Below are positions 1,227 through 4,600 of a stretch of DNA of 64,000 bases, piece by piece. The notes beneath the pieces were generated by a model that saw nothing but the letters and a program-made list of their open reading frames with translations, was not told the origin of the DNA and searched no databases. The position numbers and the translations under genes were made by a program. Source of the stretch: Haplodiscus bocki (taxonomy: Eukaryota); contig OZ296653.1 in NCBI GenBank assembly GCA_965655095.1, positions 50,344,001 to 50,408,000 on the forward strand. The letters are read 5' to 3'. Within the stretch, counting starts at the first letter, position 1, and each line of letters begins with the position of its first letter.

Positions 1227-1665
1227 CTATCGTTGAGGCTGAAATAAAGTAATTGTGAGGTTTGAACCCGAAAAAACTTGGAATAATATTGAAAAAACCG
1301 TTGGCCAATGTAATTGATCATAACCACATCAAAGTTTAGGGATCGCTAATTCATGAATATTATGGCTCTTCAGGTGTCGCTTTAACGCGTGGAGATTCAA
1401 TTCAAGTGTTCCGTAGGTAGGTTTTCGAAATAATCGTCTTTTTGTCACTAGATTGTAAACAAAACGTTGATACTGTTGATCAAAGTAAGTGACTAAAGAG
1501 CCTGGTGGAAATTTATTGATTGGTAATTTTCTCAATTCTTGAAGCTCAGGATAGCAGCAGGCTATCGTACAGGCTAAGCCTTTGCCCATAGCGAAATCCG
1601 AAGAAACACAGTGTGCTATGCATGTAGCTGTGAGAATATTTGACTGTGAAAAACAAAATTTTGGA
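1227..1665 (-). pseudogene. TARG1/OARD1-like macrodomain at the C-terminus of element A Pol
   Basis: IAHCVSSDFAMGKGLA...VYNLVTKRR..KPTY...AIPKL*CGYDQLHWPTVFSILFQVF. The TGA replaces the Gly of the PxxGCGxD motif. Confidence 0.9.
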
Positions 1666-4600
1666 TGCACACTTGATTCAATGACTGCGTTGACGTCATT
1701 TTTATTTGATAAGCGTTTTTGTAAGCTTTTCAAGGAGTAGCGTTTCTTTACTTCCTTTTGGCGTTCTGAATACCCTGGCGGCGTTGACTGAGCCGAATGT
1801 CGAAAATGGGTATACTTGTCGTGTACATTCGGATCTTTTTGTGTTACGGATTTTGATTGGAGAGTTCGTCTTCGTTGACACGAATCAAGGATTGCATCAC
1901 GTTTCTGTCTCTGCGTCAGCTGATTCAGTGTAGCAGCTGGCTCAGTAATTGGAATACAACGTATTTTAGGTGGTATTTTGTTTTGTATGACTTTCTCATG
2001 ATAATCCCGCGGTGGTAGTCTCGGTCGAAGATCATAAGATTTTGGTAAATCTGTACTAGAAGATTGCGCCTGTTGGCTGTCAGATTGAACAGTAGTACAA
2101 AAATTACGGATGTAAATTGAATTTTCACGCGTAGAATCAACTGAGCTATCGCTACCGTCATTATGACTAAGATGAGTTGGGGAAACTCTGAGGGTGCCTC
2201 GATCAACAGTAGGCATGGCCTCTGTAGATTAAGGTGCCAGGAGTGGTCCCTGCCGCTCAAACTCAAATGCATTAGAAATACTTCTCTGAGAGTCATTCAA
2301 AGAGTTGTTGGAACCAGCGCCGCTAATTGCACGGGAACTTTGCGAACGTGAAAGAGGGCGCAGTGGAGATTGCCGGTCAGTAGGTATTGCCTCGGCTGGT
2401 AGTCTTTGCCCGCCTGAATTCATGTGAGTAGGAGTGTCCCGTAACGTTCCAGCGTGCAATGAAGCATCATTAGTAGGAGAATCATCTGAGCTATCAGAAA
2501 ATCGAACATCCTGAGTAGGAAGATAAGGTCACTCTAAAACTTGCGGTTCGGGTGCTTCAACATCTGCCGTGTCAGGGGCCATCAAAGCTGGACCCGCTGC
2601 CACAGCAGGTGGAGGTACTGGAGCCGGTGCAGCTGCCAGTCCGACTGGTACGGGTGCCGGAGCGATCGGAAAACGAAGACTAACAGTGACAGGTGGCGGA
2701 TCTTCCGTCACATTTTGTGTTGCAACCAATGTGGTGGGAGGTTCCAACAAAGAAGGAATACTTTCACCAAACAACGTTGGTTCACTACGATAGTGGCCCA
2801 ACGATGGGTCTCGTTGAAAATTTTCGAAATTATTGACCATTAGATCATCAATCCGACCTTGCCGGGTCACAGGTCTCAAGCGAATTCGGTGAACACATTG
2901 TGTGTAATTCGTGCCAACTGTGCGAATGATATAATTAGAGTTTGTCAAAAATTTCTCAATACGATAGAGAGGAAGCCATATTGGCAACGATTTACTGGCA
3001 AAATAGAACTGTGTCAGCAGTTTTGGGTTAAGTAAGAGACAGTAGGAGAAAAGACCTAACGGTTTAGCTTCCGCTTTGCAATCATATTAGGCACCATATT
3101 TGTTGTACATTTCGGTCAATTTGAGTTTTGTTTCAGAAAATTTCCTGTTCATTGCATCTTGTAATGCGATAACGTACTCACGATTCGGAGAAAATCGTTC
3201 AATCAAAGTGTTATTGAATCGTAAGTCTAAAGGTTTGATTGGTTCACGTCCGTGAAAAAGAACTGTAGGGCTACAGCCAATCGCTGAGTGATAAGACGTG
3301 TTGTGGACAAAAGTGGCTAATTGTACGTATTTAAACCAATCGTTCCATTGTTCATTAGTATTCAATTTGAGAATACGTTTAAGTGCGCTATGAGAGCGTT
3401 CAACAACGCCCACCGTTTGTGGGTGTTTTAAACTGGCATGTTCTAGTTGAATTTCAAGCAAGTTCGTTAATTCATGCAAAAGCTCAGAAACAAAGGAGGT
3501 TCCCAGGTCAGAAAGAATTGTTTTTGGCAAATAACTATGTCGGAAAAAGACTGACGTAAGTTCACGTGCAATTAAGTCTGCTCTTACATTTGTCAAAGGG
3601 ACAGCGAACAAGTATTTTGTAAAGACATCAATAGCTGTCAACACATAACGGTGAACTGGTGATTTTAATGGTCCGACCAAATCAATTCGAAGTGTTTCGC
3701 CAGGATACGAATTTAGAGACGATACTGGTTGTAACGGTGTTTTCAGAAATTTTGACGGTAGGCGTTTTAGTTGTAAGCAAGCAAGGCAGTTTTTAATTGA
3801 AGAATGAAAAATTCGGTAAAATTTGGAAAATAGAATCTTTTTCGAAATTCTTCAACTGTTTTGGCAAGGCCAAAATGTCCGGTGGTTTTCGAATTATGGA
3901 GGCGGAAGACAACTTCACGCCCAAGCGCTTTTGGTACACAGAATTGTTTGTATTTTACTTTACGACAGTCATCGTAGAATAAACGATATAAAATATCATT
4001 TTCAACAACTAGGCGATTAAACTGTTTTCGATACTTTCGTAAAGCTAGCGGCAAATTTGGCGATTCATCGGGATTACCCCGGCTTTTCCATGAAACTACC
4101 TCTCGGATAACTTCATCATTTTGTTGTTCTTGGACTAAGTCAAGGGGTTGTGTTCGATTCCGTAAATCGTTCAAAATGTCTTCAAAATCGTTAGTTTCGA
4201 TCAAGTTTACTTGCGGAATTGATGAAAGAGAAAAAAAGCCCCTTATATGAAAATCCGGGTCATCACCATGTTGTTTTGCTATAAATTGTTCATAGAGGCC
4301 GTGTGCCTTCAATTGAGTGATGAATTGCTCCTCGGCCGCAGGTTGTAGTTCTTCAGAAAATGGCGCAACTTCAGTAATGTTCGACAAAGAAACATTTGGT
4401 GCTTTTGCTTCAGTTTCTTTTTCAATTTCACGTACCGGCACATGATCCGTAAGTTTTGTCTGTAACGTTAAATTGGGATCTGTTTGCATGCGGGAAAGAA
4501 AATCAGCGGCAGAGTTTGCTTTTCCCGGAATATGCGCAAGGAGGATGTTAAAGGACAAAACTCTGTCCAAGCAATTCCATAGAGATGGATGTATGCTTTT

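Follow-up and report, generated by a model that had tools for sequence, protein, structure and literature searches.

TARG1-type macrodomains at the integrase end of Pol in two diverged Ty3/gypsy elements of Haplodiscus bocki

Retroelements carrying a captured macro domain have been reported before. According to PMC4977317, which cites Basta et al. 2009, epsilon-like endogenous retroviruses of ray-finned fish carry macro-domain ORFs; these LTR retroelements belong to the Retroviridae, whereas those described here are Ty3/gypsy elements. A second parallel is offered by the chromoviruses and other chromodomain Ty3/gypsy elements, in which a host-derived module is placed at the integrase C-terminus (parts of PMC13524379 and of bioRxiv 10.1101/2021.11.30.470311): there the module is a methyl-lysine reader, while here it is a domain of the ADP-ribose-turnover enzymes, carried on a much longer linker. 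The domain itself resembles human TARG1/OARD1/C6orf130 (PDB 4j5s, 4j5r, 2lgr), from which it differs in being fused to a retroelement Pol. As described in PMC9411070 and PMC8501950, TARG1 depends on Lys84 to remove ADP-ribose linked to acidic residues or to DNA thymidine; Lys84 and Asp125 are the catalytic residues (PMC9411070).

Parasite-borne or defence-linked ADP-ribose erasers of macro fold also include coronavirus Mac1, alphavirus nsP3 and bacterial DarG, and RNA-virus macrodomains are described, in extracts of PMC7232374, as countering PARP-based ADP-ribosylation defence. The RNA-virus domains are more distant from those of the elements (14-16% identity, TM ~0.7), while DarG differs in lacking the Asp of the catalytic dyad (part of PMC9411070), and no toxin partner is found in the elements.

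Macrodomain capture by retroelements is thus already on record, from the fish retroviruses; the case described here is a TARG1 domain C-terminal to a Ty3/gypsy integrase. No description of this arrangement was found in the full-text collection searched, outside which most subscription papers and Repbase reports lie. No such fusion was found in the text and supplements of PMC13524379, which surveys gypsy elements that carry env, in part of an opinion article on accessory domains (PMC6338049), or in text passages of a chromatin-fusion survey (10.1101/2021.11.30.470311), whose supplements may list some.

Layout and condition of the two elements

The window, i.e. the whole 64-kb stretch of contig OZ296653.1 that was analysed, contains two LTR elements, A on the minus and B on the plus strand, whose features are collected in Table 1. 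A Pfam scan, combined with alignment to B, places the A domains in the Ty3/gypsy pol order, with protease, reverse transcriptase, RNase H and integrase following gag. Only one LTR of A can fall in the window, the 3' end of the element being located outside of it. The initial annotation had stated that the LTR of A differs from that of B, and this holds for the putative A LTR at 9887-9477: in the comparison an equally high score is reached by 62 out of 300 shuffles, and no blastn match is detected.

The copy of A in the window is a dead insertion. Its pol pieces undergo five frame changes from protease to integrase, and the frame spanning 1227-2987 is interrupted by three internal stops (2531-2529, 2231-2229 and 1331-1329), the last of which lies just before the CGYD motif, so that this copy is incapable of producing a complete macrodomain. 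The degenerate antisense frame found downstream of the macrodomain is probably an accessory gene of A; it has no Pfam match under E 0.1, and its comparison with the accessory region of B in six frames gave no match (2/60 shuffles at best).

Element B shares the layout of A, with integrase C-terminus, linker and macrodomain in the same order, and its insertion is marked by paired LTRs, a primer-binding site and a 5-bp target-site duplication. Several stops and one frameshift occur in its gag and pol, which are 10-15% different from other copies despite the near-identity of the LTRs (98.4%); B may be a defective element that was mobilised in trans. Downstream of pol, an antisense frame that is presumed to be JmjC-like and a set of presumed env-like frames have no match in Pfam or PDB. 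Two or three short Trp-rich frames are also located 3' of pol (42160-42960 and 43300-43600, plus strand); the start of one of them matches the N-terminus of the database protein P0013 (65% over 26 aa), so that this frame is shared by a sister family.

The remainder of the window includes two host genes on the minus strand, apparently with few or no introns, encoding Vps39 (639-aa open frame, 13386-15305) and a mitochondrial carrier (319 aa, 31703-32662). A reverse transcriptase frame, putatively of non-LTR type, lies at 56136-57668 on the plus strand, and 57650-64000 is occupied by AT-rich tandem copies, at least three in number and 85-92% alike, of a unit about 2.4 kb long. A dispersed inverted repeat (9993-10429 and 26207-26650, 74% identical) is located just outside the putative LTR of A.

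Table 1. Features of elements A and B, in coordinates of the window
Element	Feature	Position	Strand	Basis or remark
A	Putative 5' LTR	9477..9887	-	Deduced from position; TGT start; primer-binding-site-like 9-mer adjoins
A	Putative primer-binding-site-like 9-mer	9468..9476	-	Same as the 9-mer after the B 5' LTR
A	gag with zinc knuckle	7016..8404	-	Pfam; N-terminal 200 aa 48% identical to those of B
A	Aspartic protease region	6430..6990	-	46% identical to that of B
A	Reverse transcriptase, two frames	4900..6056	-	Pfam
A	RNase H and integrase zinc-finger	3770..4930	-	Pfam
A	Integrase core (rve)	3090..3851	-	Pfam E 1e-9; shares frame with linker and macrodomain
A	Integrase C-terminal module	2763..3086	-	58% identical to that of B; stop at 3087-3089
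A	Linker, Pro/Ser-rich, ~362 aa	1677..2762	-	Mostly disordered (predicted); stops 2229-2231 and 2529-2531
A	Y-x-x-R-x-R motif YDLRPR in linker	2019..2036	-	
A	Short linker helix KRDAILDS	1881..1904	-	
A	Macrodomain, TARG1/OARD1-type, at pol terminus	1230..1676	-	Terminal stop 1227-1229
A	Lys of YNLVTK, counterpart of catalytic K84 of TARG1	1440..1442	-	Alignment to TARG1
A	Premature stop inside macrodomain	1329..1331	-	4 codons upstream of catalytic Asp
A	Asp of CGYD, counterpart of catalytic D125 of TARG1	1317..1319	-	Alignment to TARG1
A	Degenerate antisense frame downstream of macrodomain	3..800	+	
B	5' LTR	33905..34395	+	
B	Integrase C-terminal module and 266-aa linker	40151..41269	+	
B	Macrodomain, open frame	41270..41707	+	Lys 41495-41497, Asp 41618-41620; 45-aa tail after
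B	Antisense frame, cupin/JmjC-like motif pattern (presumed)	44860-45900	-	
B	env-like frames (presumed), hydrophobic stretches	46447-48839	+	
B	3' LTR	49393-49884	+	98.4% identical to 5' LTR

The macrodomain and its divergence between A and B

That the Pol of A ends in the same macrodomain as that of B had been proposed in the initial annotation from the motifs HCVSSD.AM, YNLVTK, KPTY and CGYD. These are found in the integrase frame on the minus strand, at 1613 (start of HCVSSDFAM), 1457-1440, 1424-1413 and 1328-1317, and comparison with TARG1 bears the identification out. Searched against solved structures, with an X at the stop, the A domain gave human TARG1/C6orf130 in 5/5 matches (E 1e-20 to 2e-20), as did the B domain (5/5, E 1.4e-26 to 1.9e-26); the Pfam Macro model gave E 0.008 for the A domain, which is below the cut-off. 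The motifs shared with TARG1 are HC-S-D--M-G-A, TK, KP-Y and CG-D-L-W, and the spacing between catalytic Lys and Asp, 41 residues, is the same. The element domains differ from TARG1 in having Pro for Gly53, followed by a short insertion, and those of the A group also in having Tyr for Leu124 and Asn or His for the strand-1 Asp. In A the terminal stop directly follows the domain, without a C-terminal tail, unlike in B.

An AlphaFold (AF2) model of P0184, a database copy whose macrodomain is 88% identical to that of A, was built on an alignment that included cellular TARG1-like rows and has a pLDDT of about 94 in the macrodomain; the linker is mostly of low confidence, with a few short helices. 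When this model was used in a Foldseek search, ranks 1-8 were occupied by TARG1 (rmsd 1.7-2.4) and ranks 9-11 by DarG, with viral macrodomains afterwards; in the best match to TARG1 the TM score is 0.90 and the rmsd 1.7. Membership of the A domain in the TARG1/OARD1 macrodomains (ALC1-like class) is confirmed by sequence comparison, by the codons of the catalytic dyad and, through the model of P0184, by fold.

Amino acid identity between A and B is 71% for reverse transcriptase, 65% for RNase H, 61% for the integrase core, 58% for the integrase C-terminal module, 46% for the protease and 35% for the macrodomain; the N-terminal 200 aa of gag are 48% identical. For the macrodomain, 143 of 146 codons can be aligned, with z=21 against shuffles, while the linker gives z=1.9, with many gaps and no alignment beyond chance, in agreement with its earlier description as barely alignable. 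None of the enzymatic pol domains evolves as fast as the macrodomain, for which dN is 0.67, versus 0.21 for reverse transcriptase and 0.35 for integrase. A comparison of dN/dS between macrodomain and linker, which had been suggested as a check, is uninformative, since saturation of synonymous sites extends to all regions (pS 0.70-0.88 by the Nei-Gojobori method); macrodomain and force-aligned linker have the same pN/pS, 0.63 and 0.64 respectively.

Related families and conservation of the domain

Relatives were collected by using the B macrodomain (22 element frames among 28 proteins, 313-998 aa long) and the A linker end plus domain (62 proteins of 220-700 aa), and by a search of 1.84 billion representatives, from which the best 150 of 3081 matches were used. 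The integrase-linker-macrodomain layout is found in at least four A-like and at least four B-like families; since the macrodomain served as query, families which have lost it would have escaped notice. The frame is open from the integrase C-terminal module through the macrodomain in 12 of the 62 A-type and 9 of the 22 B-type matches. Among 38 long candidates (999-2850 aa) no relative of the B macrodomain was detected, a result of little weight. In other proteins, TARG1-type macrodomains are fused into DNA ligase 3 (P0023-P0027, P0063, P0118, P0131 and P0166), to NADAR (P0043, P0111, P0137) and to SLOG domains (P0036, P0103, P0177).

When one representative was taken for each of eight families, macrodomain identity exceeded linker identity in 28/28 family pairs and was lower than that of the integrase C-terminal module in all 28 as well; the linker of P0180 is disregarded. 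Identities of the latter module and of the macrodomain are correlated across the eight families (Spearman 0.82, Mantel p 0.002), a signal which comes largely from the A/B split. In the macrodomain, families are 32-61% alike overall and 48-61% within either group; inside a single family, divergence is the same for linker and macrodomain (85-91%).

Residues were counted on 210 aligned domains, each with a coverage of 95 residues or more. The columns of Lys84 and Asp125 are both kept in 9/9 A-sister, 8/8 B-sister (including P0019, a row with frameshifted tail), 19/23 A1 and 9/9 B1 rows, and in 145 of 150 other rows. Pro at the position of TARG1 Gly53 is present in 24/28 A1, 9/9 A-sister, 10/10 B1 and 8/8 B-sister domains, and in 13/150 others. 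In the A group the adenine-binding Asp of strand 1 is changed to Asn, His or Ser, none of the nine A-sisters keeping it, and Tyr replaces Leu124 in most rows. In family A2 (P0213, P0214, P0217) the HC, strand-1 and KPTY motifs are altered, with Lys and Asp intact. Because of the strand-1 replacement and of the HC and KPTY alterations in A2, ADP-ribose activity may be reduced in some A-group domains, and in A2 it may have been altered or lost.

Near its end, the linker also shows weak homology between A and B. A counterpart of the short A helix, located 73-78 residues before the macrodomain, is present in 15/17 linkers and in all eight families, B included, by a pattern chosen after inspection. 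Profiles of the A-group and B-group linker ends align by hhalign with E 0.001-0.013 for the last ~85 residues and E 0.001-0.005 for the last 95-130, at low HH probability, and score above all column shuffles (0/40).

The initial annotation had argued for long-term selection from the retention of the domain in two diverged lineages. This argument is supported, and is strengthened by the eight families, which keep the layout and the catalytic residues and show the excess of macrodomain over linker identity.

Origin and possible role of the domain

The following reading is regarded as moderately probable when taken as a whole. In a single event, an ancestral Ty3/gypsy element would have acquired a TARG1-type macrodomain, joined in frame to the pol terminus after integrase and a flexible linker. 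The capture would predate the split of A and B, both lineages having then diversified into several families with the domain kept by purifying selection. This history, from the single capture onwards, is strongly supported. The domain would be translated within Gag-Pol and packaged into particles, where it would travel with integrase or be freed by the protease of the element. Judging from the biochemistry of TARG1, the domain, where the Lys/Asp pair is intact, would most probably remove ADP-ribose from protein Asp/Glu or from DNA; putative targets are ADP-ribose groups placed by host PARPs on element proteins, cDNA or the integration site, and the effect could be either to counter an ADP-ribosylation defence or to clear a repair signal at the integration gap. 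A role as eraser is favoured by this biochemistry, together with the use of viral macrodomains against PARP defence.

The same single old capture could alternatively have provided a reader, tethering the integration complex to ADP-ribosylated chromatin, at places of damage, replication or heterochromatin, and thereby steering target choice. The domain occupies the slot C-terminal to integrase that is filled by the chromodomain in other elements, as described in parts of PMC13524379 and 10.1101/2021.11.30.470311, and Pfam scans of the frames covering integrase C-terminus and linker detected no chromodomain, the macrodomain being in that place. In addition, the domain is predicted to sit at the tip of a long flexible linker, and the pocket is changed in the A group. 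Some A-group families, and only these, carry a Y-x-x-R-x-R motif, YDLRPR in A, with the spacing of the residues Y537/R540/R542 of the nucleosome tether of foamy-virus Gag (passages of PMC6042332); by analogy this motif could be a tether, and it is taken as a lead only. For reading alone, both catalytic residues would not be required, yet both are conserved among families only 32-61% alike. The Asp in contact with adenine, moreover, ought to be necessary for binding but is replaced in the A group, even if Asn or Ser can serve at this position in alphaviruses (extracts of PMC7232374). A tethering role, the main rival of the eraser, is held to be unlikely.

A further alternative concerns the number of captures: two or more old events, or a swap between elements, could each have placed a TARG1 domain of the host lineage at the pol C-terminus, where it was then selected. 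TARG1-type domains have indeed been taken repeatedly by retroelements. Of 80 proteins scanned, three gypsy-type Pol proteins contain the same macrodomain subtype in other positions, i.e. between RNase H and integrase in P0123, before a protease in P0092, and near or after an integrase zinc finger in P0056. These three fall on other branches of the macrodomain tree, and position and branch together indicate that capture recurred in other lineages. A location of the domain between protease and reverse transcriptase in P0042/P0172 is not supported (z=1.0, 80/500 shuffles as high).

A first tree was built on 180 of the 210 domains, leaving out 30 near-identical copies. Its SH-aLRT supports are 98 for the A clade, 92 for the B clade and 93 for a joint A+B clade, which includes P0128, P0146 and P0151. 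In a second tree (mixture model, 70 rows), for which the bootstrap did not converge, the corresponding supports are 97/98, 93/92 and 96/95, and P0042 is added to the joint clade. A strict A+B clade, without P0042, P0128, P0146 and P0151, is not rejected (AU p 0.27), which is no proof of that clade, and the host's own TARG1 was not identified among the rows of the trees. The linker of P0146 is similar to those of B type (29% over 271 columns). P0151, which is sister of the A group (98/92) and has no recognisable element sequence, could be a host gene, and this would speak for separate captures, as do the lack in A of the 45-aa tail of B and the mostly unalignable linkers. The joint clade may also owe something to long-branch attraction, since the A-B likeness in the macrodomain (35%) is no greater than that of B to many cellular TARG1s (35-48%, among the best 150 of 3081 matches).

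Against these points stand the location of the domain behind a homologous integrase C-terminus in both A and B, the helix held at constant distance in nearly all linkers, the profile homology of the last 85 residues, and the failure to reject the A+B clade. The shared position, linker-end homology and helix favour one ancestral fusion, and old independent captures are considered quite improbable. Recent independent captures from the host gene, the circumstance named in the initial annotation as fatal to its view, are unlikely, given the mere 35% identity of the A and B domains and the subsequent diversification of either group into families that are 48-61% alike. The likely history is a single ancient capture that selection has maintained.

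That the domain is a neutral passenger, captured recently or without selection and carried along by successful elements, is very improbable. In its favour, both window copies are defective, pN/pS is alike for macrodomain and linker, and divergence within a family is equal for the two. This last, however, is the expectation for decay after insertion, and the domain is nearly gapless between A and B at saturated synonymous sites, next to a decayed linker, with frame and catalytic residues kept in eight families.

Returning to the single capture of an eraser, a bolder extension of it is put forward tentatively and is, as a whole, doubtful: an entire clade of Ty3/gypsy elements would carry a catalytically active TARG1 on its integrase, erasing host ADP-ribose from the cDNA or the integration complex, and ADP-ribosylation would be a defence against retrotransposons in this eukaryote. 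If this is true, the separate captures elsewhere, along with the presumed dioxygenase-like antisense gene of B, would mean that these elements carry a kit of modification erasers. The naturally intact small macrodomains of these families can be assayed directly. The main value of element A is that of an outgroup, by which an isolated oddity is shown to be an ancient and conserved arrangement; the maintenance of a TARG1 domain on integrase across at least eight families, with separate captures in other elements, points to ADP-ribosylation as a possible pressure on LTR retrotransposons.
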